This document shows positions 1 through 44,300 of a stretch of DNA of 64,000 nt, one piece after another. A model generated the notes under the pieces. It was not told the DNA's origin and ran no database searches. It worked only from the letters and a program-made list of their open reading frames with translations. Position 1 is the stretch's first letter. Every line of letters starts with the position of its first letter. Source of the stretch: a virus (taxonomy: Duplodnaviria; Caudoviricetes); the IMG/VR virus record IMGVR_UViG_3300023048_000002, positions 32,001-96,000 of that record; one strand, written 5' to 3'. The position numbers and the translations under genes are program-made.

Positions 1-366
1 TTCAAATACTTTACGTTCATAATTTAAATAACCTGCTGTACTGTATTTGATCTTATAACTACTTAATTCAGATATTGGTTGCTCAAATTTCTGTTCAATA
101 GCTTTGATTACACTATCGTATTCAGCATCAGATAATTTTACAGAGCCAAAGTTAGGTGCATACGTCCAAGCCAATCCCATTAACTCATGTGTTACTGGAC
201 TCATTATGTTGTCAGGCTGTTGCATGAAGATGACATCTTTCTGATCCATCTGACTCATATTAAACACTATTACATAACGACCTATACCATCTGCGTTCCA
301 GTTAGTTAAATAAGATACTTTACCATCTTCAATGGATTTAAAAATTTTCTCAAGTAAACTGTTCAT
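1..366 (-). CDS. hypothetical protein, runs off the left window edge
   Basis: Hand-translated open frame from ATG at 366 (MNSLLEKIFKSIEDGK...) to position 1; ATGA overlap with the upstream ORF. Confidence 0.7.
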   Translation of the reverse strand, partial: MNSLLEKIFKSIEDGKVSYLTNWNADGIGRYVIVFNMSQMDQKDVIFMQQPDNIMSPVTHELMGLAWTYAPNFGSVKLSDAEYDSVIKAIEQKFEQPISELSSYKIKYSTAGYLNYERKVFE

Positions 367-659
367 TCTCTTTCCTTATACCAATCTAGGTTCCAATCAA
401 ATGCTTCAATTTTATCGAAGACGATATGAACCTGCAAACCACATGGCCTACCATCTGTTACTGCCCTACCATCAACACTAGCGAGATTATATTCAATTCT
501 CTCTTGGTACATAAACTTAATAAAGTCGGTATATGCTCTACCAATGTATTCCTGATAGTCTGAAATTCGAATCATCTTTCTGAATTCTCTAATTTGTTCA
601 TCGGTTGGCGGCGGAAGATTTTTAATATGTTCTAGCAACTCTGCAAAACTCATAACCAT
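363..659 (-). CDS. hypothetical protein
   Basis: 98 aa ORF with stop/start overlaps with neighbours. Confidence 0.65.
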   Translation of the reverse strand: MVMSFAELLEHIKNLPPPTDEQIREFRKMIRISDYQEYIGRAYTDFIKFMYQERIEYNLASVDGRAVTDGRPCGLQVHIVFDKIEAFDWNLDWYKERE

Positions 660-933: not shown

Positions 934-2808
934 TTACACATTAAACTCATCTTTGAACTCATCTACCGATAGTGTCTTGATACCCAACTCACGAGCCTTC
1001 ACGGCCTTTCCAGAGGTTGAGTTAGGCTCAGCCGTCACAAGGTGTGTGGTGTTCTTAGAGACCGAGCTACCGACCTTCGCACCAGCCTTTTCAAGCTTGG
1101 ACTGAAGGTCTTTGTCACGGAAGCCAGTGAACACGATATTCATACCCTTGAACTCATCAGTCTTCACTTCAACGATGAAGTTCAATCCTAGGCGATCTTT
1201 CAACTGTTTGGCGTTATACAAACCATTAACGAAAGATGTGGCTGTCTTCATTTCGAAACCATCAAAACCCATGACATCAGATAGCTTAAGGTTCCAGACA
1301 TCTGACTCATTAGTTAGATTCTTAATAAGAAGCTTTGACTTACGAACACCGAAGCCAGAACCAAAGTACATGACTGCACCAAGATAAGTAGGCAGAGTCA
1401 GGCCAGCAAGACGACGCTCAAGACTTGTGAAAATCTTGGAGCCATTGGAACCAATCACACCTTCCCATTCAATTTCCATTAGATTTAGAATGGTATCAAT
1501 AACTTCTTCATAGCTACGACTACGAAGCTTGAAAGCATCGAATACCTTAGCCATGCTTGATTCCTTAAGAAGATCGACTTCCAAGGTTTCAAAGAAATCT
1601 AGAACCTGCTTAAAGATTACATCTGAATCACTCTGATAGTTCTTACGAACGAAGTCAACCTTATTCTCATCCCACTCCCAATCACTATCAGGATATTGTG
1701 CAACGATCTTATCATCAGGAATCACGTCTGTGATGTATGGAATGACCTCACCTGAGCGAACTAGCTTGACAGTCTTACCCGGACCAATTTGGTTATCTAC
1801 AATAAACTTACCATTGAAACCAGTAGCAAAGGTAACAGTAACACCGCCGATCTTGACAGGTACGATTTCAACGCGTGGCTTCTCACGTCCCCACTTACTG
1901 ACTTCGTAGTGAATTTTTACAACCTTTGATTCCTTAATAGCGCTTGCATCCTGCACTTTGTACTTGACCGAATGCTCAGGGTTCAAACTAGAAGAACTTG
2001 AAAGCGTCTTCTGTGAATTCTTGTCATTGATGGTTACTACGATACCATCTAGCTCATAGTCTGATACAACGCGTGCATCACGGAGAGCCTTTGTCAGCGT
2101 AGGATCAGATACTTCAGAGCCAAAAATTTCATCATGTGCGACCACAGAAAATCCAAGGCTCTTCAATATAGCCAAGTCACCTTTCTGTGATGCAGTTAAA
2201 TATTCATCTGATCCATCGACAATTTGATAAGCAACGAAATCAATATCGTTAAGAACAGCATCATCAGTGGTGCTACGGTTCATTGCACCAGCGACCATGT
2301 TACGTGGGTTCGCGTAAGCACCTGACCAATTCTTTTCAAACTTATCATTAGACATGATCAACTCACCACGAATGGTAAGATGGCCGGTACCTGTGATTGA
2401 CAATGGGATATTAAGTTTCTTGACGTGACGTGAATAATCTGCACCTTCATAACCGTTACCACGGCTATAGGCGATCTGGAACTGACCATTCTTATACTGA
2501 AGCATGCAGCTTACGCCGTCCAGCTTATGACTGACGATGACCTCCTTAGTCTTGAGGCCATACTTTACGACCCAACTAGTGGCATCGCCTTCATAGATTT
2601 GCGTTAGCGAACCCATGGTATATGGAAGCTTGATCTTGCCGCCGCGAACGTCAGAGCCAACCTTCATAAAATAGGAATGGTTAGGCTGCATCTTCTGCGC
2701 CTTAACCTTCAATTGGTCATACTGAGCATCAGAGACCGATGGAATACCATTGGTATATTCATCGTCCCAAAGCTCAAGCTGTTCAACAATTGATTTAATG
2801 TTATCCAT
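934..2808 (-). CDS. ligA: NAD+-dependent DNA ligase
   Basis: SDAQYD, KLDG adenylation motif, SRGNG, RGE, NPRN, DGIV, SGEVIP and a C-terminal BRCT (VFTG...KAVKARELG). Confidence 0.95.
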   Translation of the reverse strand: MDNIKSIVEQLELWDDEYTNGIPSVSDAQYDQLKVKAQKMQPNHSYFMKVGSDVRGGKIKLPYTMGSLTQIYEGDATSWVVKYGLKTKEVIVSHKLDGVSCMLQYKNGQFQIAYSRGNGYEGADYSRHVKKLNIPLSITGTGHLTIRGELIMSNDKFEKNWSGAYANPRNMVAGAMNRSTTDDAVLNDIDFVAYQIVDGSDEYLTASQKGDLAILKSLGFSVVAHDEIFGSEVSDPTLTKALRDARVVSDYELDGIVVTINDKNSQKTLSSSSSLNPEHSVKYKVQDASAIKESKVVKIHYEVSKWGREKPRVEIVPVKIGGVTVTFATGFNGKFIVDNQIGPGKTVKLVRSGEVIPYITDVIPDDKIVAQYPDSDWEWDENKVDFVRKNYQSDSDVIFKQVLDFFETLEVDLLKESSMAKVFDAFKLRSRSYEEVIDTILNLMEIEWEGVIGSNGSKIFTSLERRLAGLTLPTYLGAVMYFGSGFGVRKSKLLIKNLTNESDVWNLKLSDVMGFDGFEMKTATSFVNGLYNAKQLKDRLGLNFIVEVKTDEFKGMNIVFTGFRDKDLQSKLEKAGAKVGSSVSKNTTHLVTAEPNSTSGKAVKARELGIKTLSVDEFKDEFNV

Positions 2809-23568: not shown

Positions 23569-24969
23569 TTACTTAACGAAATAGGCATTAGCACGTTCAC
23601 GAACTTCATCAAAGGTCGTTTCTTTGACGATCATACCATGCTTAAACACGATTTCAAGCTCTTCTTTGCGTTCCAGTGGGTCTTCCAGACGAATAGTAAG
23701 GTAATTACCGTGATCATCCTTGACAAGACCTAGGCGGCCCTGCTTTGAGGTCTTACCATTATCATCAATCGGCTGTTTGTATACATCGACCCATTCATTG
23801 TTTACCAGAGCAGCAGAGCATTTCTGTGCAAACTTAAATGTATCACGATTGACCATCTGCAAAAGACCGCCACCCATTCCAAAGTTAAGATTTTCAGTGC
23901 TGAAACCTTCAGCCTTAAGATTCTCAAGAATCAAAGGAATCGTTTCAAGAGTGATACCATCACCCTGAATCACACGGATGTGATCAGGAAGCACTTTGTA
24001 TCCCTTGCTGTTAACTGTAAACCCTTCAAGTTCGGCAATCATCTTAACCAACTTGATAGGAACAAGAGTCGGATCACCAGAGTCAGGACGGATGACTACA
24101 CGAGCGCCAGCAGCCTTTACGCGGTCGAATAGACCACCCTTGCTCCACATGTTCTCAACAGCATTGTAGATGTTGTAACTATCAGAGACTACTGCAAAGA
24201 TTGCGCCCTTCTTGGCATACTGATCAACCATGTTCGAATAAGCGTCAAACTCATTCTCACGCTTCCAGCTAGTGATGGTTGAATGCTCTGCGGCAGGGAT
24301 CGAATATGCGCAAACATCAGAACCATAATAATTCATGGCACCAACGATGGCTTCAACGGTGTCAGAACCCATGAAGTTAACGATATGGCCCATACCACCA
24401 AGCATGGCGCTTTCTGCACTACTGACACCACGAGCGCCGAAGTCATGAAGCATGAAATTCAGACTATCAAGCTGGTCAGAGGTTTCAAGAAGATACTTGT
24501 GCATGATCTTCTTACAGGTATAAGAAAGAGTAGCAACCGTTGAAGGATACCAGATGGCACGAAGAAGTGCTGTTTCAATATATGAAGGAAGCCAGAAAAG
24601 GTTCGGGTCTGACGTGTGAACGGTGAGAAGGACATTGTGCAGTGGAATCACAGAACCTTCCTTTGCAGACTTGATCGTCAGTGGAAGATATCCATCATGC
24701 TTTTCTACAATGTATTTCCAACCATCATAGTTGAACGGTTCGCCATGCTTTGCTGCGAAGGTGTTAGCAAATTCAACATCAGCCATTGTGATGGGCTTGC
24801 TAAGGTATTCTTTGAGATAAGCCTGAAGGCCAAAATAAAGTAGTTCATCAGTGAACTTGCAGCCACGGGATTCAATATAGCTGAATACATCAGTGGTGCC
24901 TGCGGGATACTGAAGCCAATGAGACATCTTATAGCTATCAGCGCGTAGAATTGTGTGTAGTTTAATCAT
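23569..24969 (-). CDS. nadV: nicotinamide phosphoribosyltransferase
   Basis: DSYKMSH, HDFGARG, NFMGSDT (Asp of nicotinamide specificity), SIPAAEHS, VSDSY, RPDSG, IQGDG, GGGLLQ. Confidence 0.95.
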   Translation of the reverse strand: MIKLHTILRADSYKMSHWLQYPAGTTDVFSYIESRGCKFTDELLYFGLQAYLKEYLSKPITMADVEFANTFAAKHGEPFNYDGWKYIVEKHDGYLPLTIKSAKEGSVIPLHNVLLTVHTSDPNLFWLPSYIETALLRAIWYPSTVATLSYTCKKIMHKYLLETSDQLDSLNFMLHDFGARGVSSAESAMLGGMGHIVNFMGSDTVEAIVGAMNYYGSDVCAYSIPAAEHSTITSWKRENEFDAYSNMVDQYAKKGAIFAVVSDSYNIYNAVENMWSKGGLFDRVKAAGARVVIRPDSGDPTLVPIKLVKMIAELEGFTVNSKGYKVLPDHIRVIQGDGITLETIPLILENLKAEGFSTENLNFGMGGGLLQMVNRDTFKFAQKCSAALVNNEWVDVYKQPIDDNGKTSKQGRLGLVKDDHGNYLTIRLEDPLERKEELEIVFKHGMIVKETTFDEVRERANAYFVK

Positions 24970-31906: not shown

Positions 31907-32488
31907 TTAGAGTGAAGTTTGAATAAGTGTCCTGAACATTCGGTATACTTTCAAATACTCTTTAATTATATATAGGGAACTCAATGGCTGCGACTGGTCA
32001 ATCTCAAGGAAATCAAACATGTCTCTGCTACTAAATTGGCCCATGACAGCCATTAATGGAAATAAGTCCAAGGCTCTGTCATCAAACTTGAAATGCAAGC
32101 CAACAGAATGGAATACTTTATTTAAGAATGGGATATGGAATGAGTTTGCACGATAACCGAACACTGGAATAGAGTCCTTGACTCCGAAGTGCTTATAGAT
32201 GAATTCACCTAGGATTGCGGCTGCATCCTCAAATGTCTCACCATCATCTCTCAAGTCTGATGTAATACCATGAATATCTTCTAGACGAGAATCCCAAGTA
32301 TACTTCTTAGAATCAAATTTTATCTGTACTGATACAGTCTCTTCAAACTTCAATGTGGATGTGTTCAGTAGGCCTAGAGCCACTGTTAATGGTTGGTTGT
32401 TTGCAGTGATGTCATCACCCTTACTGACACCTGTGGTGTGGCAGTGAATTGCTAATACTTTTTCAAACTTCTTACTTGCTGCTGTCAT
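31907..32488 (-). CDS. DnaQ/DEDD-fold protein with catalytic acids replaced by His
   Basis: LAIHCHTTG (cf. DxETTG), IHGIT, NSFHIPFL (cf. FDxxFL), ALDL. Confidence 0.7.
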   Translation of the reverse strand: MTAASKKFEKVLAIHCHTTGVSKGDDITANNQPLTVALGLLNTSTLKFEETVSVQIKFDSKKYTWDSRLEDIHGITSDLRDDGETFEDAAAILGEFIYKHFGVKDSIPVFGYRANSFHIPFLNKVFHSVGLHFKFDDRALDLFPLMAVMGQFSSRDMFDFLEIDQSQPLSSLYIIKEYLKVYRMFRTLIQTSL

Positions 32489-33646: not shown

Positions 33647-36600
33647 ATGAGCGATAATTATAGTGTAATTTATTTAGATATGGATACTGGCAATAAGCTG
33701 TATCTTGAAAAAGCATTGGGTAGTGGCATCGCTCAGTTTAAATACATCCAGAATGTTCCTGCTGCAACATGGACTCTCTTCCATCAACAGTTTTCTGATA
33801 AGTTTGTTATTTCAATTACAGATGAGAATAATGAAGAGATTGTTCCTGACAGCATTGTTGTCTTCGATCTAGATACTATTGCCATTCATTTCTCGGAACC
33901 AGTAATGGGTAAGGCTATCCTTATCATATTTGATAAGAGTAATGCACTCCCAAGTCCAACACCAACAACCACTGCAAGTAACACGCTGACCCCAACTCCT
34001 TCAGTGAGCAAGAGTGTGTCTGCAACTCCAACGCCTACACCTACTAATACACGCACAATTAGTGTAACCCCATCAATCACAGCTTCTATGCATGCTAGTG
34101 CAACACCGTCACCAACCGTTACATTGACTGCCACACCAACTCCTACTCTTACTGTAACACCTAGCGCATCCTCAGCAGTTATCCTGCTTGATGGTCATGT
34201 TGCTGATGCACTAATTAATGATTCCGTTGCCGGTTCATACATGATTGTAAATGGTGATGTTTCTGGAACATTTAGCATATCGAATGATATGGGTGACGAT
34301 GCAACCTTCAGCATTAATTCCGGTACGTTCCCAGCAGGTCTATCTTTGAATAGTGATGGTACCTTTGCTGGTGCATACAATACCGCAGGTAGCTTTACAT
34401 GGGTTGTAAAAGCTGTGGATTCTGAAGGCCGTGTTGGTATGCTTGAAGATAGTAACCAAGTTGCTACCATTGCTGGCTACATTAATGCCACCGCCGTTCT
34501 TGGTGCACAGGTACAATCAAGTAATGCATTAACCCCTCGTGGCCTATGGGCTTTCGTAATGGGTGATTTTGACTTTGTTAATAGATTAATTACTCTATAT
34601 GTGGATGATGTTAATAGAGGAACGGCTCCTGCTGAAGTCGGCCCACAGACAAACATTGATATCACCATCGGTGGTATCAATTATTCATCCGAAGGAATCT
34701 CTGGATGGAGAGGTGATATTTGGGGTGCTGGTATTGCGAATGGTGGTTTGACGGCTGATGAAAGAAGTCTACTATGGAATTCTGGTAACGGTATTCGCTT
34801 TGATGATTTGTCAACTAGAACAGATTCAGTATCTCAGTCACTTTGGGCAAAGATGGCATATGCTTGGCAGTTAGATGACGATGCTACTGGTGATACTTAT
34901 ATCGATTTGACCGGACACAAGAACCTAAGCAAATCTTATACACTAACAAATCGTGATGATAGTAAGTTTGGTAGAGTAACTAATTTCCCTAAATCTGGTA
35001 AGCTAACTGCTATCAACTCAAGTTCAGACGGTTTTGAAAGTAATGATCATTCAACATACTTCGCTTGGGTATTTGCGGAAGTTGAACAGACTGATGACTT
35101 CCCATCTGTAATTTCAAGATATAATGGCGGTGGTAACTTCCAAGGTATCCGTTGCTTCTGGACATCTGATGTCACAGACCCAACTCCAACTCCATCACCA
35201 TCTGTTACACCTTCGCCAGTGACCCCAACTCCTACACCATCTATTAGTATGAGTGTATCTTTAACTCCTTTAGTCACCCCCACGCCAACACCGAGTGTAT
35301 CTACAGGACCAATAATACCATACGAATCAGCTATTTTAAATAGAGGTCCATTAGTATTCTTAAAACTCAATGAGACTTCTGGCTTAATTGCAAAAGATTC
35401 AAGTGGCAATGGCCGTGATGGTACCTATAATAATACAACCATCATCGGTGCTAATGGTCTATATGGGTCACCGTACTCGGCGCGTACCAACTTTGCAGGG
35501 TTTAATATTCCTTGGGATGCTGGCTTAGATGTTACCGGTGATTTCACTATTTTCATGACTGCAAAGATATCTTCTGCAAGCAATAGTAATCAATATCCAA
35601 AATTGGTAAGCAAATATGCTGGTGATGCATCTTCTGGATATGCTACCTATATGCTACAGATGACTGGTAGCAGTGGTGATATGACTAGTCGTGTGAGTAC
35701 AACAGATAACTCATATAATGATATTACTACTTCATATCCCGTAAATGATGACATCACACGTCTATATGCAGTAAGACGCTCTGGTAATGAAGTATCATAT
35801 TTCATTAATGATACCTTGATTGGTAGTATTACTGTCAGTGGTAATAACAGTATTTCAAATTCCCCAATACAAATTGGTGGTGATAATAATGCCCGTGATG
35901 GAATGGATGCAAATGTGCAATGGTTTAGTGTATTTGATTACGCTATAGCTGATAATGATATTACAAGCCTATATTATCTAGCATCGGGTATTACTCCTAC
36001 ACCTACGCCATCAGTAAGCCCTTCCAGTACTCCTAATTTGACTTCAATTGATCCATATTTTAATAATGTTGTATCTCTACTACACTTGGATGGCGATAAT
36101 GGTTCACAAACAATCACTGATCAGATTTCAAGTAATCAATGGACAGCACGTTTAGCCGCAGGGTTGAGTAATGAAAAAACATTAGTATCTGGTACATGTG
36201 CTAGCTTACCCGGAACCGCATATAGTTATCTATCAACCCCATATAACCCAATCTATGACTTCGGTACTGGTGATTTTACTATCGAAATTACAGTCATGTT
36301 CAGAGCATTCAATGGTGAATATCAAATATTTGCATCAAGACAATGTGATAGTCCAGTTTCTATAGCAGTCCAACTTAGGTTAAATCCATCGAATATTATT
36401 GAAACAACCCTCCGTTCAGGAGATGGTAGCCAAGTATTGAATGTGGCAGGCACATCAGTATTATCTGAAAATACCAAGTATTCTATTGGTGTTCGTAGAT
36501 TAAATGGTATTGTAGAACTTTATGTAAATAATATCATGGAAGGCACTATTGCATGTGCATATGATATGTATGATGCTGCTCAAACCCATGGTTGGGTGCT

Positions 36601-37378
36601 TGGTACTGGTGATGGTAATGATCCGGGGAGTGGTAATAACCTCAATGGATGGCTTGATGAATTCCGTGTCACCAAGGGTGTTGCACGAGATTTAACCATT
36701 CCACAAGTTGGACCCTTCCCTGATGTATCAGGGACAACTCCTATGCCTACACCATCTGTAACACCAAGCCCATCAGTAGGCCAAAGAACCTATTTTGACC
36801 CAAATAACTCTTCACCAAGTATAACGACTACATCAAGTAATTCATATCGTGTAGCTACACGATCAACTGATCCTGACAATTATGTAAGTATCAAATCATA
36901 TGGTCATTCAACCGGGAAATATTATCTAGAGATTGTAACGAATACGGTAGGAAGTTGGGATGGTGGTATATTAGCCGGTTTTGGTTTTTCTAATGCTTTA
37001 AATAATACCTATGCTGGTGCAGATGCTTCAACCTCGATAAGTCTACAGAGTAATACCAGTGGCGATAATGCTAATGGATATGGTTTTAAAAATTGTACCA
37101 ATTCATCAGTTGATCGTATAGATGGTGTCAATAGATACTTCCGTCTGGCAATTGATTTTGATGCTGGAAAATTATGGATAGGCTCTGAGACGATATGGGC
37201 ATGTGGTGGAAGTGATCCATCTATTGGCAGTTCACCATTTGGAAACTTCACACCAAATACCATGATGTATGTAATGGCTTCCATGTATGACTCAGGTAAC
37301 AGTGTAACTATGAATGCATACTCTGATGAAATGATCGGAGCCATACCTACTGGTTTCTTACCATGGGGTGGTTCATGA
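33647..37378 (+). CDS. large virion surface/fibre protein: Ig-like, several LamG/ConA-like and a SPRY-like domain joined by Pro/Thr/Ser linkers
   Basis: FPAGLSL..DG; LKLNETSG..AKDSSGNGRDG; VVSLLHLDG..FGTGDFTIE..GWLDEFRVTKGVAR; TGKYYLE..AIDFDAGKLW; (PT)n tracts. Confidence 0.8.
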   Translation: MSDNYSVIYLDMDTGNKLYLEKALGSGIAQFKYIQNVPAATWTLFHQQFSDKFVISITDENNEEIVPDSIVVFDLDTIAIHFSEPVMGKAILIIFDKSNALPSPTPTTTASNTLTPTPSVSKSVSATPTPTPTNTRTISVTPSITASMHASATPSPTVTLTATPTPTLTVTPSASSAVILLDGHVADALINDSVAGSYMIVNGDVSGTFSISNDMGDDATFSINSGTFPAGLSLNSDGTFAGAYNTAGSFTWVVKAVDSEGRVGMLEDSNQVATIAGYINATAVLGAQVQSSNALTPRGLWAFVMGDFDFVNRLITLYVDDVNRGTAPAEVGPQTNIDITIGGINYSSEGISGWRGDIWGAGIANGGLTADERSLLWNSGNGIRFDDLSTRTDSVSQSLWAKMAYAWQLDDDATGDTYIDLTGHKNLSKSYTLTNRDDSKFGRVTNFPKSGKLTAINSSSDGFESNDHSTYFAWVFAEVEQTDDFPSVISRYNGGGNFQGIRCFWTSDVTDPTPTPSPSVTPSPVTPTPTPSISMSVSLTPLVTPTPTPSVSTGPIIPYESAILNRGPLVFLKLNETSGLIAKDSSGNGRDGTYNNTTIIGANGLYGSPYSARTNFAGFNIPWDAGLDVTGDFTIFMTAKISSASNSNQYPKLVSKYAGDASSGYATYMLQMTGSSGDMTSRVSTTDNSYNDITTSYPVNDDITRLYAVRRSGNEVSYFINDTLIGSITVSGNNSISNSPIQIGGDNNARDGMDANVQWFSVFDYAIADNDITSLYYLASGITPTPTPSVSPSSTPNLTSIDPYFNNVVSLLHLDGDNGSQTITDQISSNQWTARLAAGLSNEKTLVSGTCASLPGTAYSYLSTPYNPIYDFGTGDFTIEITVMFRAFNGEYQIFASRQCDSPVSIAVQLRLNPSNIIETTLRSGDGSQVLNVAGTSVLSENTKYSIGVRRLNGIVELYVNNIMEGTIACAYDMYDAAQTHGWVLGTGDGNDPGSGNNLNGWLDEFRVTKGVARDLTIPQVGPFPDVSGTTPMPTPSVTPSPSVGQRTYFDPNNSSPSITTTSSNSYRVATRSTDPDNYVSIKSYGHSTGKYYLEIVTNTVGSWDGGILAGFGFSNALNNTYAGADASTSISLQSNTSGDNANGYGFKNCTNSSVDRIDGVNRYFRLAIDFDAGKLWIGSETIWACGGSDPSIGSSPFGNFTPNTMMYVMASMYDSGNSVTMNAYSDEMIGAIPTGFLPWGGS

Positions 37379-37862: not shown

Positions 37863-38218
37863 AGCATTGACTGAATTAGTTCATAGGATTCTAGATTAAC
37901 GTATTCCTGCTTGTTAGTCTCAAAATCCTTTAACTGAGTTTCACCTTCTGGTGTTAACTGTCCCATCTGATCTACCAGATTGTTATTATACAAAGCATCC
38001 TTTCCGCTAGGTGACAGAGCAAGCTGATTCGCGCTCTGTTGCACGAGTCCTAGTCTTACCAACTCATCCTTAGCCTGAATAGTGTTAGGAGAACCTGATG
38101 CCATATCAAAGGCCTGCTGTGGTGTTGCAGAAGCGAACACAGTTACTAGCATACCTTTCTGTGAATCGGTTAGATTCGTTGTTGGTGCTTCGCTTAGGAT
38201 ATCCCTAATCTTTTTCAT
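37859..38218 (-). CDS. hypothetical protein
   Basis: 119 aa; MKKIRDILSE N-terminus. Confidence 0.7.
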   Translation of the reverse strand: MKKIRDILSEAPTTNLTDSQKGMLVTVFASATPQQAFDMASGSPNTIQAKDELVRLGLVQQSANQLALSPSGKDALYNNNLVDQMGQLTPEGETQLKDFETNKQEYVNLESYELIQSML

Positions 38219-38784
38219 AGTCGTCCCATTTTGATTAAATGCAATTGAAGAACCACGAGAAGAGCGTATGCCAGAGCATGCGCTTTTTTCATATGCGACT
38301 TATCTCTGATCGTGTAAAGCTCTTTACGATGTTCTTTCTTATTCTTTAGATATTTATCCAATATCTTTTCTTTCATTGGTCTAATGAAAGCAATGGCATC
38401 AGCAATTTCTAGAACGGATGTTGGCTTGATGGCATAGACAATATCGAAGTGACCAGTTAGATGGAACAGTTTGTCCACATTAGATCGTTCAAGCAATAGC
38501 TTCCAGTCTGGTTCAATATCCAGAAGGTCATCCATTTCTTTCTTAGAACTGAACAGCTTCAATGTATTATTGTTAAGCATGTCAATCTTGAAATACCCTT
38601 CCTGCTCTGCATCCTCATAAGGAATAGCAGACAGCTTGGTCATCCGATCCTTCGGAATGTTTTGAAAATATATGCCCACAGGATGGGGCTTCAATTGTCC
38701 GTTCTGAACCATTGAAGCCTTTGTGGCTAAGTTGAAAAGTTTGAAGGGATTGACATCCGGTCGGATGTCGATGTCTATATCCAT
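38215..38784 (-). CDS. DNA polymerase III alpha (DnaE)-like fragment 2, catalytic palm
   Basis: MDIDID (cf. PDIDIDF), HPVGIY, GYFKIDML (cf. GLxKxDxL), KAHALAYA (cf. KSHAAAYA). Confidence 0.85.
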   Translation of the reverse strand: MDIDIDIRPDVNPFKLFNLATKASMVQNGQLKPHPVGIYFQNIPKDRMTKLSAIPYEDAEQEGYFKIDMLNNNTLKLFSSKKEMDDLLDIEPDWKLLLERSNVDKLFHLTGHFDIVYAIKPTSVLEIADAIAFIRPMKEKILDKYLKNKKEHRKELYTIRDKSHMKKAHALAYALLVVLQLHLIKMGRL

Positions 38785-39434
38785 TTTTTTGAGCCCAATA
38801 CTAGTAAGTCTCTTTTGAGTATATCACATTCTTCCAATGTTTCAATCTCATCAATTCTTTTCTTGTATTGGTTCTTGATCTGTTCGACGGATATGAGTCG
38901 CAACAAATAATTTTTTCTTGCCTTCACGAATATGTGAGCTACTGATTCATGTGAACGGCCACTATGCTTTGATTCTAATTCTATTAGAATATTATGTTCA
39001 GTCTTTCCATCAAAGAAACGAACCGCTTCTTCAAAACGCTCAAGCATCAAATCTCGGGAATCGAAATCATCTTGAATGCTACTGACAACATTACGAATGA
39101 TTTCACGAACCATTCGTCTTAGCTCTTCTTTATAATGTTCTATAGATTTGTAATCAGTACTCTTGTACTTGACCGGAGGAATATGTTTCTGTAAGTCAGC
39201 AAGAAACTCCATAGCTTTCCCAATATCATGGAAATCATCTACGGAGCGTACTTTGATTCTCCACTGTTTCCAGAGTTCCATGATGGATGGTTCAAGTTCA
39301 ACGTCTTTCACAAAAATCCAATCACTGTTGGATAACATGCGGTTACGTATTGACTTTACTTCATTCCAATCATTTTTTCTCTTTTCATCAGTGGTAGATA
39401 TCTTTAGACTTTTTATTCTTTTAATTTCAGTCAT
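38775..39434 (-). CDS. tail-fibre assembly chaperone-like protein
   Basis: W.EVK.IRN.ML..SDW....D......W.QWR..VR motif. Confidence 0.6.
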   Translation of the reverse strand: MTEIKRIKSLKISTTDEKRKNDWNEVKSIRNRMLSNSDWIFVKDVELEPSIMELWKQWRIKVRSVDDFHDIGKAMEFLADLQKHIPPVKYKSTDYKSIEHYKEELRRMVREIIRNVVSSIQDDFDSRDLMLERFEEAVRFFDGKTEHNILIELESKHSGRSHESVAHIFVKARKNYLLRLISVEQIKNQYKKRIDEIETLEECDILKRDLLVLGSKKWI

Positions 39435-40621: not shown

Positions 40622-40792
40622 TTAATCCCAAGTCTCAAAGTCTTCAATTTTACTGCCAATCAAATCTGGTGTGAATTCCTCATCAGGCATTTCACAGACG
40701 ATATAGCCGTTCTTTGAAGCATCTTCAATATTTATTGGCTTGATAGCACTACCAATGATTACATTATCTGTTTGTCTTACAATTAAAAACAT
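40622..40792 (-). CDS. hypothetical 56 aa protein, not in the ORF track
   Basis: Hand-translated MFLIVRQTDNVIIG...; AAGGA RBS. Confidence 0.6.
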   Translation of the reverse strand: MFLIVRQTDNVIIGSAIKPINIEDASKNGYIVCEMPDEEFTPDLIGSKIEDFETWD

Positions 40793-40801
40793 AGTTAATC
40801 C

Positions 40802-40975
40802 TTAAATTAGGCACTCTTGATACGTACCATCATTACAGAAGCATCCATCCATGATAGATGAACCTCCGCCATGACCTAAACATTGCTTATCACAAGTAGT
40901 GCAGCGCTTGATATCAATAGTCAAGTCTTCACGTTTAGGATATTTATTTTTCTTTGGCTTCTCGTTATCAGTCAT
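40802..40975 (-). CDS. small Cys-rich protein, 57 aa, not in the ORF track
   Basis: Hand-translated MTDNEK...RCTTCDKQCLGHGGGSSIMDGCFCNDGTYQECLI; AAGGT RBS. Confidence 0.65.
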   Translation of the reverse strand: MTDNEKPKKNKYPKREDLTIDIKRCTTCDKQCLGHGGGSSIMDGCFCNDGTYQECLI

Positions 40976-40984
40976 ATTATTACC

Positions 40985-42376
40985 TTAAACGTCGGAACAG
41001 CAGTTTGGTGGAATCCAAGTACCTGTACCATCTGCACAATAGCAGCACTTAATGTTATGGTGAAGAATAAATGCATCTGACTGTTCACCAGCCCAAAAAC
41101 ACTTATCGCCAACAGTGATATGCTGAACCCAAATATCACCCTCATCAGTTACGCTAATAGCTTCTTCCCACTTTGATTCACCGTCAACCATGACAGCTAC
41201 ATGCTTACCTAAAACGAATGGTGCTTCAATGACACCTTCAGTTGTAGGAATTGGTGCAGTAGTTGAACATACTAGCGAGATACCAGTTCTGGTAACAATT
41301 CTTACTGACGGCTGCAAGCTTGGTTCAGAATAAGTGACAATACCTGTACCCGGAGTCAAATCATCTTGATCGGCTAAGATCATAGAATCGCCCGGTTTAA
41401 TTTCACCAGCAATTCTTCCATCAGGCAGGAATGAGTTAACTGCTACACAGCAGTGAGCCTGTATCGCTTCACAACGCTGACATGCATTCAAGAATGGTGA
41501 TGGCGATGGCGTGATAGTTGGAACTGGTGTATTTGAAGGTACTGGTGTGTTAGATGGTGCCGGAGTATTTGATGGTGCTGGTGTTGGCGAAGGAACAGGT
41601 GTAGGTGTTCTTGTGCTAGTTGGCACTGGTGTATTAGTTGGAGCCGCTGTTCTTGTTGGGGTAGGTGTAGGTGTTCTTGTTACAGTAGCCGTTACTGACG
41701 GTGTTGGTGTAGCTGATGCCGTTGGTGTAGGTGTAGGTGTTCTTGAAACGAAAGGAGTTTGAGGAATAACATTCATATTACCTGCATTAACGTTTCCACT
41801 AATAGCAATAATCATGTAGTTAGCAATGCCTTTCGATAAAGCATCATCACCATAGGCTCTGTACTTCATTGAAACTATACCAGAGTTATCCGTAGTGCAA
41901 AGCATGTAAGTGAAAGCCTGTGGAAGCTTTGCAGGAGATACAGCCCAAATGCATTCACTATAATCATAAACGTAACCATTATAACGATTAACTGGACGTG
42001 GAATTTGCTGGCCGTCCTGAATCTGGCCCCAATTAGCTGCAACATCACCCTGTGTTCTTAAAATTTCCCACTGTGCACTATTGAAAACATACATCTTCTT
42101 ATCAGTGCTGTTAAACCATAACTGACCTTCTGTAGGAGTATCCAATGCACCACCATTGATCGTGGCGTCTGGAAATACATTTGAGTCAGTTGAAGCTGCG
42201 TCTTGAGGGCATGCAAATCTTTCAAGAAGATGTAGCATGTTTTCATTTAGCTCTTCACCATATTCAAGATCAACTCTACCAAACAATGAAATTGCAGTAG
42301 AGGTGTCATCCTTAGTACCTTCTTTAAGGGTAATAGGAGTTTTGTTGATATCTGTAAATCTTACGTTGTAATCCAT
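40985..42376 (-). CDS. virion structural protein, paralog 2, with a Hint domain flanked by Cys-rich segments
   Basis: Shared N-domain, PT linker, CVAVNS...ILHHN. Confidence 0.8.
   Translation of the reverse strand: MDYNVRFTDINKTPITLKEGTKDDTSTAISLFGRVDLEYGEELNENMLHLLERFACPQDAASTDSNVFPDATINGGALDTPTEGQLWFNSTDKKMYVFNSAQWEILRTQGDVAANWGQIQDGQQIPRPVNRYNGYVYDYSECIWAVSPAKLPQAFTYMLCTTDNSGIVSMKYRAYGDDALSKGIANYMIIAISGNVNAGNMNVIPQTPFVSRTPTPTPTASATPTPSVTATVTRTPTPTPTRTAAPTNTPVPTSTRTPTPVPSPTPAPSNTPAPSNTPVPSNTPVPTITPSPSPFLNACQRCEAIQAHCCVAVNSFLPDGRIAGEIKPGDSMILADQDDLTPGTGIVTYSEPSLQPSVRIVTRTGISLVCSTTAPIPTTEGVIEAPFVLGKHVAVMVDGESKWEEAISVTDEGDIWVQHITVGDKCFWAGEQSDAFILHHNIKCCYCADGTGTWIPPNCCSDV
41054..41449 (-). other. 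Hint (intein-like/BIL) domain, 132 aa
   Basis: Cys1 block A CVAVNSFLPDG..AGEIKPGD, block B VRIVTRTG.SLVCST, block F/G VQHITV...FWAG...ILHHN. Confidence 0.8.
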
Positions 42377-42378
42377 TG

Positions 42379-44253
42379 TTAATCCGATGCTTGATTTAAT
42401 TTGTTATGGTGTAGGATAAATGCATCTGCTGTTTCACCAGCCCAAAAACATCTATCATCTACAGTAATGTGTTGAATTTCTTTATCCCCAACACTCTCAA
42501 CCATGATGACAACTTCCCAATTGGTTAGATTGTTTCTCATTACTGGAATATTTCTATTTAACAAATCAGGTGCCATCATGTAACCATTATCATAGGTAGG
42601 GATTGGTGCTGTGGTTGAGCATACCAATGATGCGCCAGATTCAGTTACGATTCTTACGCAAGGCTGTACCTTTGTTGTGGAGTATGAGACATCACTAAGA
42701 GTTGTATCAAAGTAGTTATATGGATCAGCAGTTACCAACTGATCACCAACATTGACTGCCTGTGCTACAGAACCATCAGGGAATACGGAATCAATTGCTA
42801 CGCAACCTCCACCACTTGTTGATGTGCAGTTAGCAGTTGAGAACCAAGAGTCTGTATAGGAGCCCTGTGGAGTTGTATAGGAAGTACCGTATACATTACC
42901 CTGTAGACCAGATGGGGTGTATAGAACAAGCTGTTTGCCAAGAGCATCAGTGATGACGACATAGCTAGCACTAGAAACAGACAATGACCACTGACCATTA
43001 TCACAGTTGTTAAAGATACCTGTAATGCCGATAACTGCGGTTGCAGATAGTGAGCTAGATGAATCTGCACCTGTTCTTAGCGTGCTGGTTGATGCACCAG
43101 ATGCACCAGCATAGCTTCGTGTGGTTGTGGTTGCGATAGTTGCACCAGTTGTGGTGTCAACCAATGAGGAACCAAAATTAACGTTACCAAACTCTACACT
43201 ATATGGCGCTGAACCACCTGAAATTTCCTGTACGATAACACTCATATTGTTCAAGCAACTTACGCGAGTGGAAGCTGTTGTTGTACATGGTGAAGGAATT
43301 TCTGTGTTACCAGCCTGTGGATATCCCTTAGATGGTGAGATATACATCGTAGCTCTCAATGGTGCAATCGTCTTAGATGGCGTAATTGAAGGCGTTGGGG
43401 ACGGTGTGGTAGATGCCGTAGGGGTTGGCGTAGTAGATACGGCCGGTGTCGCTGTACGGGACACTGAAGGCGTTGGAGACGGTGTAGGTGTACGCGTTGG
43501 CGTAGGAGTTACTGTAATACCCGTAGTTGCTGACGGAGTAATTGTTGGTGTTGGTGATGCACCCACCGAAGGCGATGGATTTGGCATATTTGTTGGGGTT
43601 GGTGTTGGTGAAGGAATAGGTGATGGCTGACCATCGTCTGTTCCTTCATTCTGGTTAAACTTAACACCAATGATCTGGTAAAAGGCATAGCCTTCTGAGA
43701 CAGTTGTGAACTGTCCCATTCTATATTGTGCTGTTACCTTGGCTTGACTATCTGTATAACAAATCATGTAATCAACTTCATCAGGGAAGTTGAACGGGCT
43801 AACAATCCAGCTACATTCATCGTAGCTGAATTCATAACCTGTAGATGCTGAAATTGGTCGAGGGAGGTTTGCACCATGAGCGATAATGCCGCTATTACCA
43901 GCAATGTCACTTAATGAACTGTTAGCAATCCATTGAGAGCCATCATAAACATACAATTTCTTTCTAGTGGAGTTCCACCATAGCTGACCTTCAGTTGGTT
44001 GCTTAAGCACACCACCGTAAGCCTGATTGTAGTCTGGATAGTTAGGGTTTGAGGCATCTTCAGGGCAAGCAAAGTTTTCCAGCATGTGCAACATATTCTC
44101 ATCGAATACCTCGCCATACTCTTTACGTGACTTGCCCAAAAGGGTTATATCCAATACATTTTGAATCAGCGTTTGTTTGTTTACAATGATAGGATTTTTA
44201 GTATTATCAGTATACTGTAAATTGTACACGCCGTCAGCGCAATTGTTAGCCAT
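42379..44253 (-). CDS. virion structural protein, paralog 1, with a C-terminal Hint domain
   Basis: Shared N-domain, PT linker, Ser/Thr-rich beta domain, GGG|CVAIDS...ILHHN; TATAAATA at 44283-44290. Confidence 0.8.
   Translation of the reverse strand: MANNCADGVYNLQYTDNTKNPIIVNKQTLIQNVLDITLLGKSRKEYGEVFDENMLHMLENFACPEDASNPNYPDYNQAYGGVLKQPTEGQLWWNSTRKKLYVYDGSQWIANSSLSDIAGNSGIIAHGANLPRPISASTGYEFSYDECSWIVSPFNFPDEVDYMICYTDSQAKVTAQYRMGQFTTVSEGYAFYQIIGVKFNQNEGTDDGQPSPIPSPTPTPTNMPNPSPSVGASPTPTITPSATTGITVTPTPTRTPTPSPTPSVSRTATPAVSTTPTPTASTTPSPTPSITPSKTIAPLRATMYISPSKGYPQAGNTEIPSPCTTTASTRVSCLNNMSVIVQEISGGSAPYSVEFGNVNFGSSLVDTTTGATIATTTTRSYAGASGASTSTLRTGADSSSSLSATAVIGITGIFNNCDNGQWSLSVSSASYVVITDALGKQLVLYTPSGLQGNVYGTSYTTPQGSYTDSWFSTANCTSTSGGGCVAIDSVFPDGSVAQAVNVGDQLVTADPYNYFDTTLSDVSYSTTKVQPCVRIVTESGASLVCSTTAPIPTYDNGYMMAPDLLNRNIPVMRNNLTNWEVVIMVESVGDKEIQHITVDDRCFWAGETADAFILHHNKLNQASD
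42403..42804 (-). other. Hint (intein-like/BIL) domain, 134 aa
   Basis: GGG|CVAIDSVFPDG...VGD, VRIVTESGASLVCST, IQHITV...FWAG...ILHHN. Confidence 0.8.
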
Positions 44254-44300
44254 TAAACCCTCTAGGAACCTATTATCTTAACTATTTATAACCAAGACAA

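Follow-up and report, generated by a model that had tools for sequence, protein, structure and literature searches.

Fibre-like proteins of an XacN1-like jumbo phage carry C-terminal Hint domains that probably detach themselves from the fibre

P0001 and P0002, two neighbouring fibre-like and probably structural proteins of an uncultured XacN1-like jumbo phage, end in domains that are modelled with the Hint fold and have Cys and Asn placed at their junctions as in inteins. Structure models and conserved motifs suggest that these predicted competent Hints probably remove themselves from the end of the fibre through chemistry like that of type A bacterial intein-like (BIL) domains, each Hint then serving as a transient cap. 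The fold and the junction residues emerge from the models, and their conservation across a large family from sequence alignments. Both genes lie in a 64,000-nucleotide stretch of the IMG/VR record IMGVR_UViG_3300023048_000002 (positions 32,001 to 96,000), hereafter the window.

Predicted Hint fold of the C-terminal domains

Read from Cys through HHN, the Hint domains comprise 134 (P0001) and 132 (P0002) residues, and the C-terminal domains of the two proteins share 48% identity across a 143-residue alignment (E 1e-38). Their junctions (marked by slashes) read SGGG/CVAID ... ILHHN/KLNQASD in P0001 and AHC/CVAVN ... ILHHN/IKCCYC... in P0002, which bears out the Cys start, the GGG/C sequence at one Hint and the HHN end described in the initial annotation. 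At the position of the intein TxxH motif both domains read LVCSTTAPIPT, an endonuclease insert is absent from both, and the +1 residue is Lys in P0001 and Ile in P0002. The earlier view that these are not classical inteins, as they have no block-B TxxH His, no Cys/Ser/Thr at +1 and no endonuclease, is thus supported.

AF2 modelled the P0001 Hint with a pLDDT of 92.5 and a pTM of 0.88, and the core of the P0002 Hint with pLDDTs of 93-98. A Foldseek search with the P0001 Hint model gave 59 PDB matches at E ≤ 1e-3; the top ones among the matches listed were inteins, Hedgehog and BIL domains (TM 0.77-0.78, E 5e-8; TM 0.78 to the DnaB mini-intein). VIA-align superposed the Hint model on the NpuDnaB intein (Z 18.5, rmsd 1.8 over 130 residues), Hedgehog HhC (Z 18.1), Tetrahymena BUBL BIL2 (Z 16.6) and a C. 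thermocellum BIL domain (2lwy; Z 16.1, rmsd 2.1 over 129 residues). Model residues 7 to 140 correspond to the intein from residue 1 to the terminal Asn, so that Cys484 takes intein position 1 and Asn617 the place of the terminal Asn; Cys310 of P0002 likewise falls at intein residue 1. The nearest ESM-Atlas structures were PT-HINT domains of polymorphic toxins (TM 0.80-0.84), a likeness at the level of the fold only. Structural comparison with Hint folds, suggested initially as a check, was therefore positive. Together with 884 homologous cluster representatives, the pLDDT and the Z scores to intein and Hedgehog put the Hint identity far beyond chance, and the models indicate that the C-termini of P0001 and P0002 are true Hint-fold domains.

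Searched singly, the window Hint domains matched nothing in NCBIfam, PDB sequences or Pfam, in the last case even at E ≤ 10. An S74 fold with a Ser-Lys dyad is absent (no Pfam match; the fold is that of a Hint), and no sterol-recognition or adaptor region follows the Hint, just 7 or 22 residues being found there.

Table 1 Features of the fibre gene cluster (window coordinates).
Feature	Position	Strand	Basis
P0001, fibre-like protein 1, 624 aa	42379..44253	-	ORF; phrog_15511 E 2e-102
P0002, fibre-like protein 2, 463 aa	40985..42376	-	ORF; phrog_15511 match
P0003, fibre-like protein 3, 394 aa	39434..40618	-	ORF; phrog_15511 match
Predicted Hint domain of P0001, Cys484-Asn617	42403..42804	-	AF2, Foldseek, VIA-align
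Predicted Hint domain of P0002, Cys310-Asn441	41054..41449	-	48% identity to P0001 Hint; AF2
C-extein of P0001, 7 residues KLNQASD, Lys at +1	42382..42402	-	Sequence
N-flank of P0002 Hint, NACQRCEAIQAHC, pattern CxxCx6C	41450..41488	-	Kept in orthologues
C-extein of P0002, IKCCYCADGTGTWIPPNCCSDV, 22 aa, six Cys, Lys at +2	40988..41053	-	Kept in orthologues
Small Cys-rich ORF, 57 aa	40802..40975	-	Co-occurrence with P0002-type gene
219-aa protein, tail-fibre assembly / tail assembly chaperone-like	38775..39434	-	phrog_4912, phrog_4697
TATAAATA, T4-type late-promoter consensus	44283..44290	-	~30 nt upstream of P0001 start codon

Fibre gene cluster and virion context

P0001, P0002 and P0003 are encoded by three tandem ORFs, and their N-domains are ~40% identical to one another and all match phrog_15511 (E 1e-99 to 1e-108). 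The N-domain found no match among PDB sequences; its leads in ESM Atlas (Collar, T4 gp9/10 N and PTL_trimer) were weak, with scores of 0.82-0.83 or a TM of ~0.5. At the DNA level, a blastn search with the region found nothing among 50,697 phage records. P0001 runs from the N-domain (residues ~1-207) through a Pro/Thr linker (~208-296) and a tip (~297-477) to a Gly run, the Hint and the 7-aa tail, while P0002 consists of N-domain, Pro/Thr linker, a 13-aa Cys-containing flank, Hint and a 22-aa Cys-rich tail. Of the common layout initially proposed for the two genes, the N-domain, linker and Hint are present in both but the tip is not, as that 13-residue segment is all that separates linker and Hint in P0002. 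P0003 shares the N-domain and linker, has a different tip and carries no Hint, as originally noted; the Hint family profile gives no match in it. The Hint coordinates given at the outset for the other two proteins proved exact (Table 1).

In P0002 the Hint sits in a Cys-rich mini-module, with Cys-rich segments on both sides. Both segments are conserved in orthologues, and AF2 modelled the flanks with low confidence (pLDDT 45-61; C-extein 49-61). The small Cys-rich ORF, which encodes a Lys-rich N-terminus followed by CxxCxxQCxGHGGG...GCxCxDGxxxEC, comes after the P0002-type gene in 5/5 loci and is missing where the Hint module is missing. Complex prediction for its product and the C-terminal region of P0002 scored 0.02, a value that counts neither for nor against binding.

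P0001 and P0002 are putative virion proteins and late genes, with indirect support. The gene for the 219-aa Tfa-like product (phrog_4912, E 1.7e-7; phrog_4697, E 3.7e-7) lies downstream, closes the fibre cluster and is syntenic in relatives, and a weak relative of the N-domain is present in the Atu_ph07 virion proteome. Homologues bear the names phage tail protein, tail-collar fibre or GpJ. The single TATAAATA upstream of P0001 is a possible late promoter by its sequence and insignificant alone. The window shows no enrichment of the motif (3 matches, where chance would give 4), and the late-promoter argument was dropped.

A syntenic relative (L007/L008) encodes the same fibre 1 with the same tip and no Hint, the protein terminating in a Gly-rich tail near the predicted cleavage point; in its fibre 2, linker and Hint are both absent. 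The fibre can thus exist without the module, which is evolutionarily dispensable.

Family-wide conservation of the Hint motifs

An exhaustive search yielded the 884 cluster representatives, mostly from uncultured phages and covered by no Pfam, NCBIfam or named PHROG model. Genome contigs were also scanned, with a 12-sequence alignment of the family. Cys1 is present in 139/139 aligned members. Block B follows the pattern C-S-x-T-A-P, with Ser B:7 and Ala B:10 each in 139/139, His B:10 thus being replaced by Ala throughout, and a near-invariant internal Cys (Cys68) directly precedes Ser B:7. Further family features are Lys/Arg at F:13 and an additional His ahead of HN. The 139 rows were chosen by the presence of HHN, which makes an HHN count among them circular; among the 150 best family matches, unselected for this motif, ~140 end in HHN or HNN, and only three of the Hint-bearing proteins analysed have HQN, HYN or HAT in its place. 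The -1 residue is small and mostly Gly (Gly/Ala/Ser in 113/139), and the Asn is never the last residue of any member, at least two residues following it. Lys occupies +1 or +2 in 155 of 182 members (85%) and Cys/Ser/Thr occupies +1 in only 9; the tail after the Hint exceeds 30 aa in 58 of these 182 and measures 10 aa or less in 67. Conservation of Cys1 and the terminal Asn across so large a family argues for autocatalytic chemistry.

When the family profile was compared with PDB sequences, inteins made up 7 of the best 10 matches, all weak, with S-x-x-A in block B against T/S-x-x-H; the profile alignment to the gp41-1 and PhoCDC21 inteins puts Ala at His B:10. Pfam searches over the 139 members (E ≤ 1) matched Intein_splicing once, PT-HINT once (E 0.02) and Hint_2 never. 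That no Pfam Hint model recognises the family, and that F:4 is His instead of Asp, are observations that speak against self-removal.

The carriers are mostly phage fibres, including GpJ-like and tail-collar fibres, as well as small accessory proteins; the family also occurs on bacterial T1SS (type I secretion)-linked proteins and on one Rhs protein, in which DUF6531 and RHS repeats come after the Hint. Cultured phages with a member include XacN1 (ORF231), PhiXhv-16 (XYR93569.1) and DLP6 (AMQ65897.1). P0001 has twelve orthologues (Hint identity 60-81%), those of P0002 are P0005, P0164-P0167 and P0195, and for both proteins there are orthologues in which all motifs are preserved. We found no experimental data on any family member; the XacN1 paper is silent on ORF231, which the paper and its supplement list as hypothetical only. 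The initial annotation had proposed an undescribed system. In line with this, Hint domains on phage fibres are described in no paper that we found, but the module is not particular to this phage or to phages, and the family is best seen among the known BIL/Hint domains and not as a separate new kind of system.

Proposed maturation of the fibre end and alternative explanations

The most likely mechanism would resemble that of type A BIL domains, which have a terminal His-Asn but no nucleophile at +1 and for the most part cleave, with ligation via a freed amine also open to them (PMC4031507; PMC7765530). We infer cleavage itself, together with its order, its timing and the fate of the tails, along these lines. 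Cys1 (Cys484 in P0001, Cys310 in P0002) would attack the small residue before it (Gly or Cys) to form a thioester, after which the terminal Asn (Asn617, Asn441) would cyclise with the help of the penultimate His and cut off the short C-terminal tail. The thioester may then be resolved by water or by an amine of the freed tail, either the alpha-amine or the conserved Lys at +1/+2. In net terms the ~15-kDa Hint would leave the fibre end after translation or assembly; a cap removed in this way would have a functional parallel in the S74 chaperone domains that cleave themselves from other fibres. The N-terminal step has an unusual setting, as His B:10 is the residue conserved best among inteins and an activator of this junction, and only two inteins without it are described, one of them a pseudogene (PMC4031507). 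Its replacement by Ala in all aligned members suggests that the N-terminal chemistry may be slow, conditional or different.

Simple discard of the Hint would leave P0002 almost tipless, and for this protein ligation, or the Hint as the functional end, is therefore the better fit. Ligation or decoration of fibre tips is nevertheless a minority possibility. One version, which we rate as unlikely, is a thioester conjugation device acting on extracellular proteins: the Gly tail would be charged, possibly with Cys68 as a relay, and passed to an amine in a ubiquitin- or Hedgehog-like coupling that dispenses with the block B His. One candidate for the amine is the conserved Lys at +1/+2, which would leave the tail isopeptide-linked; the other is a Lys on some further molecule of the virion or host surface. 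Also unlikely is trans-ligation of the Hedgehog/BUBL kind, in which the Hint thioester on the fibre Gly tail would react with an external nucleophile (for instance a Lys from a different virion protein, the Lys-rich product of the small Cys-rich ORF or a molecule of the host envelope) so that the fibre end becomes covalently coupled. The poly-Gly/Cys junction is like both the G/C junction of Hedgehog and the GG tail of ubiquitin, the fold matches Hedgehog HhC and BUBL BIL2, the P0002 linker ends in nothing except the Hint, and the small ORF accompanies the P0002-type module at all five loci. However, the few residues after the Hint offer no adaptor region, no acceptor was identified, the Hint-less orthologue indicates that the fibre is independent of the module, and the conserved HHN with an obligatory tail speaks for cleavage at the C-terminal junction, a step that has no part in Hedgehog processing.

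A Hint that has lost N-terminal autoprocessing along with His B:10 and persists as a folded terminal knob, for example a binding or capping domain, would agree with the invariant Ala, the non-canonical F:4 and F:13, the compact and well-packed AF2 model and the lack of any other distal domain in P0002. Invariant Cys1, widespread HHN, the small size of the -1 residue and the tail found after Asn in every member are nonetheless hard to explain without two-junction chemistry, the one active intein known without His B:10 compensates with another residue (PMC4031507) and the relative lost the module with its tip intact, so that we consider such a knob improbable. Release of what follows the Hint, as in pretoxins, would here free the 22-aa Cys-rich peptide of P0002; the PT-HINT structures nearest in ESM-Atlas, the member that precedes DUF6531 and RHS repeats, the 58 members with long tails and the conservation of the P0002 tail all lean that way. 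Payload release cannot be the general role, however, given the 7-residue tail of P0001 and the 67 members with tails of 10 aa or less, and Pfam PT-HINT misses the family apart from its one match; we judge it distinctly improbable. Finally, classical mobile mini-inteins that splice out to restore a conserved host protein would account for Cys1 and terminal Asn at the junctions and for the size, and the Cys-rich segments flanking the P0002 Hint could be two halves of one module. This reading was rejected as highly improbable because the +1 residue is not Cys/Ser/Thr (found in 9/182 members only), homing endonuclease and His B:10 are absent, and the domain lies at the far C-terminal end of variable proteins, apparently outside conserved sites of enzymes.

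Active Hints would mean that Hint thioester and Asn-cyclisation chemistry matures phage fibres as well as some proteins secreted by bacteria, and the Ala at B:10 in every aligned member amounts to a natural experiment on activation of the Hint N-terminal junction. Should conjugation instead be true, a fibre coupling chemistry would be running without the otherwise near-universal block B His. Small domains of 132-134 aa with a Gly linker, and perhaps no need for a +1 nucleophile, would be attractive for C-terminal thioesters and traceless ligation. The 884 representatives without a domain name also expose an annotation gap.

Comparison with known systems

By sequence motifs and models, the type A BIL domain (Amitai 2003 and Dassa 2004, through PMC4031507 and PMC7765530) comes nearest to the family among known systems. 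Both have the Hint fold, start with Cys, end in His-Asn and lack an endonuclease as well as a Cys/Ser/Thr at +1, and both are located in variable extracellular or surface proteins, here fibres, GpJ, T1SS-linked and Rhs proteins; cleavage at either end and ligation through a freed amine are known for type A BILs. The present family differs in having Ala for the block B His (139/139), His at F:4, Lys/Arg at F:13, one more His ahead of HN, an almost invariant Cys preceding Ser B:7, Lys at +1/+2 and an upstream poly-Gly run. It also differs in going unmatched by Pfam PT-HINT, Hint_2, Hint and Intein_splicing and in being carried mostly by fibres of phages.

Class 1 mini-inteins (Npu/Ssp DnaB, gp41-1) are the best structural matches (Z 17.9-18.5), with Cys1 and the terminal Asn superposing, and gp41-1 has C-S at B:6-B:7 in common; the family differs from them in lacking a +1 nucleophile and His B:10, and it does not appear to be inserted in a conserved host protein or to be mobile. 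Hedgehog HhC (1at0, 6tyy) shares the fold and is likewise a C-terminal module acting at Gly/Cys on the upstream protein. In Hint domains the second carrier of the thioester can be an internal Cys (C143, PMC12054796), a role of interest given the near-invariant Cys68. Unlike Hedgehog, the family has no sterol-recognition region and no TxxH, and its HHN followed by a tail implies Asn cyclisation, which Hedgehog lacks. Pretoxin HINT domains (PF07591), the nearest ESM-Atlas predictions, are similarly found near the C-terminus of secreted proteins, and one family member precedes an Rhs cage, whereas no toxin domain follows the Hint in the window and the Pfam model is unmatched. Peptidase S74 chaperone domains, which are described as C-terminal in fibres and spikes and as removing themselves autocatalytically after aiding fibre maturation (PMC7824862), have an unrelated fold and Ser-Lys dyad chemistry, with no sequence or structural match here, but provide the favoured functional analogy for a Hint that may cap a phage fibre.

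A Hint fold at the ends of two tandem fibre-like proteins

The N-domains (~200 residues) of the three tandem fibre-like proteins P0001, P0002 and P0003 all match phrog_15511 (E 1e-99 to 1e-108), with 40% identity between P0001 and P0002 across this region. The initial annotation had assigned Hint (intein/Hedgehog-type self-processing) domains to P0001 and P0002 only; the nucleotide coordinates that it gave for them proved exact, and a Hint profile search found none in P0003. With 48% identity to each other (E 1e-38), the two domains gave zero matches in Pfam, even at E<=10, and in NCBIfam, as did a single Hint sequence used as query against PDB sequences. When 1.84 billion cluster representatives were searched exhaustively with a profile, 884 relatives were recovered (131 of them at <1e-30), and 139 of the 884 made up the alignment for AlphaFold2.

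The P0001 Hint was modelled with a pLDDT of 92.5 and a pTM of 0.88, and the P0002 Hint core equally well (pLDDT 93-98). Foldseek returned 59 PDB matches at E<=1e-3 for the P0001 model; inteins, Hedgehog HhC and BIL (bacterial intein-like) domains ranked top among the matches listed, the best being the Ssp DnaB mini-intein (TM 0.78). VIA-align gave a Z of 18.5 against the NpuDnaB intein (rmsd 1.8 over 130 residues), 18.1 against Hedgehog 6tyy, 16.6 against Tetrahymena BUBL BIL2 and 16.1 against the C. thermocellum BIL 2lwy. In many VIA-align rows, model residues 7..140 were aligned to the span from intein residue 1 to the terminal Asn (e.g., Mtu RecA 1..440, Ssp DnaE 1..159), which places Cys484 and Asn617 at both splice-junction positions. 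Structure prediction thus bore out the annotated domains, and the Hint fold of both C-terminal domains is established.

Genomic setting of the fibre genes

The window belongs to a 171-kb IMG/VR virus record, estimated to be about 49% complete, and has T4-type replication and packaging genes (gp44-like clamp loader, UvsW, TerL). Together with the fibre N-domain, of which XacN1, RAS14, CM1 and Xoo-sp13, all Xanthomonas/Stenotrophomonas jumbo phages, have six paralogous copies each, these genes identify the phage as an uncultured XacN1-like jumbo myovirus. A 219-aa protein encoded directly downstream of P0003 resembles tail-fibre assembly/tail assembly chaperones (phrog_4912, phrog_4697, E about 1e-7), as fits a fibre gene cluster. 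Atu_ph07 gp176, a weak match to the N-domain (E 6e-4), is in the virion proteome of that phage (supplement, PMC6102473). This remote match is the sole proteomic support for the putative role of P0001 and P0002 as virion proteins; for their putative standing as late genes, the sequence offers a single TATAAATA about 30 nt upstream of P0001, a motif showing no enrichment in the window.

Several neighbouring genes were also recorded. The 1243-aa protein on the opposite strand is probably another fibre or adhesin. The match of the 189-aa protein to DNA polymerase III alpha covers just one piece of the enzyme, its orthologue matches DNA_pol3_finger, and the syntenic relative carries such fragments at L007 1462-2016 and 10170-10742, a separate 184-aa DNA_pol3_alpha fragment lying about 8 kb off; these matches suggest that DnaE is split and flanks the fibre cluster.

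Features of the fibre region and other genes in the window
Feature	Position	Strand	Description
P0001	42379-44253	-	624 aa; N-domain, Pro/Thr linker, ~180-residue tip, SGGG, Hint, tail KLNQASD
P0001 Hint	42403-42804	-	134 residues, Cys484 to Asn617
P0002	40985-42376	-	463 aa; N-domain, Pro/Thr linker, 13 residues NACQRCEAIQAHC, Hint, 22-residue tail IKCCYCADGTGTWIPPNCCSDV
P0002 Hint	41054-41449	-	132 residues, Cys310 to Asn441
Cys-rich ORF	40802-40975	-	57 aa; Lys-rich N-terminus, then CxxCxxQCxGHGGG...GCxCxDGxxxEC (six-Cys motif)
Conserved ORF	40622-40792	-	56 aa; between Cys-rich ORF and P0003; no annotation
P0003	39434-40618	-	394 aa; N-domain and Pro/Thr-rich linker
DNA polymerase III alpha fragment	38215-38784	-	189 aa; phrog_11778, E 6e-59
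Probable fibre or adhesin	33647-37378	+	1243 aa; several Pro/Thr/Ser linkers, two Laminin_G_3 (concanavalin-like) stretches; linker region also matches phrog_15511
Nicotinamide phosphoribosyltransferase	23569-24969	-	NAMPT/NAPRTase, E 5e-49
NAD-dependent DNA ligase	934-2808	-	BRCT domain

An atypical but conserved active site

Aligning the family profile to the gp41-1 and PhoCDC21 intein sequences identified the conserved LxCSxTAPIPT as block B. Counted over the 139 aligned members, intein position 1 is Cys, B:7 (Thr in inteins) Ser and B:10 (His in inteins) Ala in 139/139 each. F:4, usually Asp in inteins, is His in 106/139; F:13, usually His, is Lys or Arg in 97/139; and B:6 is Cys in 137/139, retained with or without a second internal Cys (position 125). 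The residue preceding Cys1 is mostly small (Gly 82/139, Ala 17/139, Ser 14/139), often with Gly runs upstream. Block G reads H-H-N; because the aligned rows had been selected for HHN, it was tallied separately, and an HHN/HNN ending occurs in about 140 of the 150 best family matches, with HQN, HYN or HAT in its place in only three Hint-bearing proteins among those compared. Every member continues past the terminal Asn, the minimum tail being 2 residues, and 155/182 carry Lys at +1 or +2, while Cys, Ser or Thr occupies +1 in only 9/182.

Only two of the inteins described lack His B:10, one a pseudogene and the other compensating by a lysine (PMC4031507). It is unusual that an entire family has Ala at this position, yet so widely retains both junction residues. 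Compensation may come from His at F:4, from the additional His ahead of HN or from the B:6 Cys; internal cysteines serve as second thioester carriers in class 3 inteins (PMC4031507) and in Hedgehog, at C143 (PMC12054796).

Some family members (P0007, P0029, P0054, P0070, P0102, P0112, P0125) carry two tandem Hints only ~5 residues apart (...AHHN-KKLGF-CVSV... in P0102), and past HHN-(L/I/M)K many tails are Gly-rich, then Trp/Asp-rich, some ending in WWWW/WPWW (e.g., P0042, P0043, P0046, P0022, P0036), a tail class that recurs in the family. The Hint of every P0002-type orthologue sits between an upstream CxxCx6C and a downstream (I/L)K-CCxC...C.W..PNCC.C, and these flanks are poorly modelled. 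The 57-aa Cys-rich ORF follows the P0002-type gene in 5/5 loci and is missing in the Hint-less relative L007/L008; the neighbouring 56-aa ORF is conserved in every relative that was examined, the Hint-less relative among them (L007 8038-8208).

Distribution, loss and shuffling of the Hint module

The family was found in only 9/50,697 deposited phage genomes, almost all of which bear the label of a Xanthomonas or Stenotrophomonas phage, and at 33 IMG/VR loci whose contigs are between 4 and 350 kb long. Named carriers are rare and include a 'predicted phage tail protein', a tail-collar fibre (PF12571), DUF4815 proteins, GpJ-type tip proteins (viral Atlas clusters; Dyella prophage locus L019), the DLP6 'VlrC' giant protein and small separate proteins adjoining fibre genes (XacN1 ORF231, PhiXhv-16 XYR93569.1). 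Members also occur outside phages, and one member is followed by DUF6531 and RHS repeats. The carriers share the trait of being extracellular, variable proteins, on which BIL domains are also found (PMC7765530).

A non-phage use linked to type I secretion was seen in Burkholderiales: in Albitalea terrae (L015 3955-11596) and an uncultured beta-proteobacterium (L016 4096-8713), ~780-820-aa proteins with a C-terminal family Hint lie immediately upstream of a C39-peptidase ABC transporter, followed in the former by HlyD and TolC-type genes. A similar 770-aa protein, also with this Hint at its C-terminus, is encoded at L011, where the contig stops ahead of any transporter position.

In the syntenic relative L007/L008, on contigs 239-257 kb long, fibre 1 shares its N-domain, linker and tip (56% identical) with P0001 but lacks the Hint, and fibre 2 is the 202-aa N-domain alone. 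That fibre 1 protein ends ...SCSSGGGSGGDKSGGGGLGSVVIRPE; its final residues, in loose alignment with GGG|CVAIDSVFPDG, may be what is left of a deleted Hint. A fibre can terminate roughly where predicted N-terminal cleavage would leave its end. As RAS14, CM1 and Xoo-sp13 likewise gave no Hint match, though N-domain paralogues are present, the module is evolutionarily dispensable. Module shuffling is seen at locus L024, where Hint and Cys-rich tail occur both on a P0002-type gene, whose ORF is partial at the end of the contig, and on P0091, which has a P0003-type N-domain.

Proposed processing and alternatives

Type A BIL-like autoprocessing is the best-supported reading of the mechanism. A thioester would form at the junction of the small residue and Cys1, the Asn of HHN would cyclise, and either water or the freed tail's amine would resolve the thioester; for BILs without a +1 nucleophile, the same published scheme yields mostly cleavage products and some ligation (PMC4031507). 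The conserved Lys at +1/+2 and the minimum of two residues past Asn suggest that the tail participates chemically, whether as leaving group, nucleophile or aid to active-site alignment. The interpretation in the initial annotation is supported in part: autoprocessing of the P0001 and P0002 Hints is predicted as likely, with caution mainly because His B:10 is missing, and ligation or decoration stays hypothetical. That the Hints form a non-cleaving terminal knob, with the junction residues nevertheless retained, seems quite unlikely.

As to role, we favour the Hint as a removable fibre-end cap, a reading that we hold to be reasonably probable and that has an analogue in the self-cleaving S74 chaperone domains (PMC7824862). 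Trans-ligation of the Gly tail, as in Hedgehog and BUBL, both close in the structural alignments, is unlikely. A tail set free as a peptide, in the manner of pretoxin HINT (PT-HINT) domains, is a slim prospect. A classical intein, to which fold and junction residues would correspond, is scarcely credible given the +1 and B:10 residues.

A literature search found no papers describing Hint domains at the ends of phage fibres. The atypical active site, large unnamed family and direct testability make these domains noteworthy. S74 domains, likened by function to the proposed cap as self-cleaving fibre ends, are unrelated to Hint. Type A BIL domains are closest, also by predicted working; however, they have the block B His and are recognised by existing Hint/BIL models, whereas the present family lacks this His and goes unrecognised, and we therefore regard it neither as a member of the BIL domains nor as a separate new kind.
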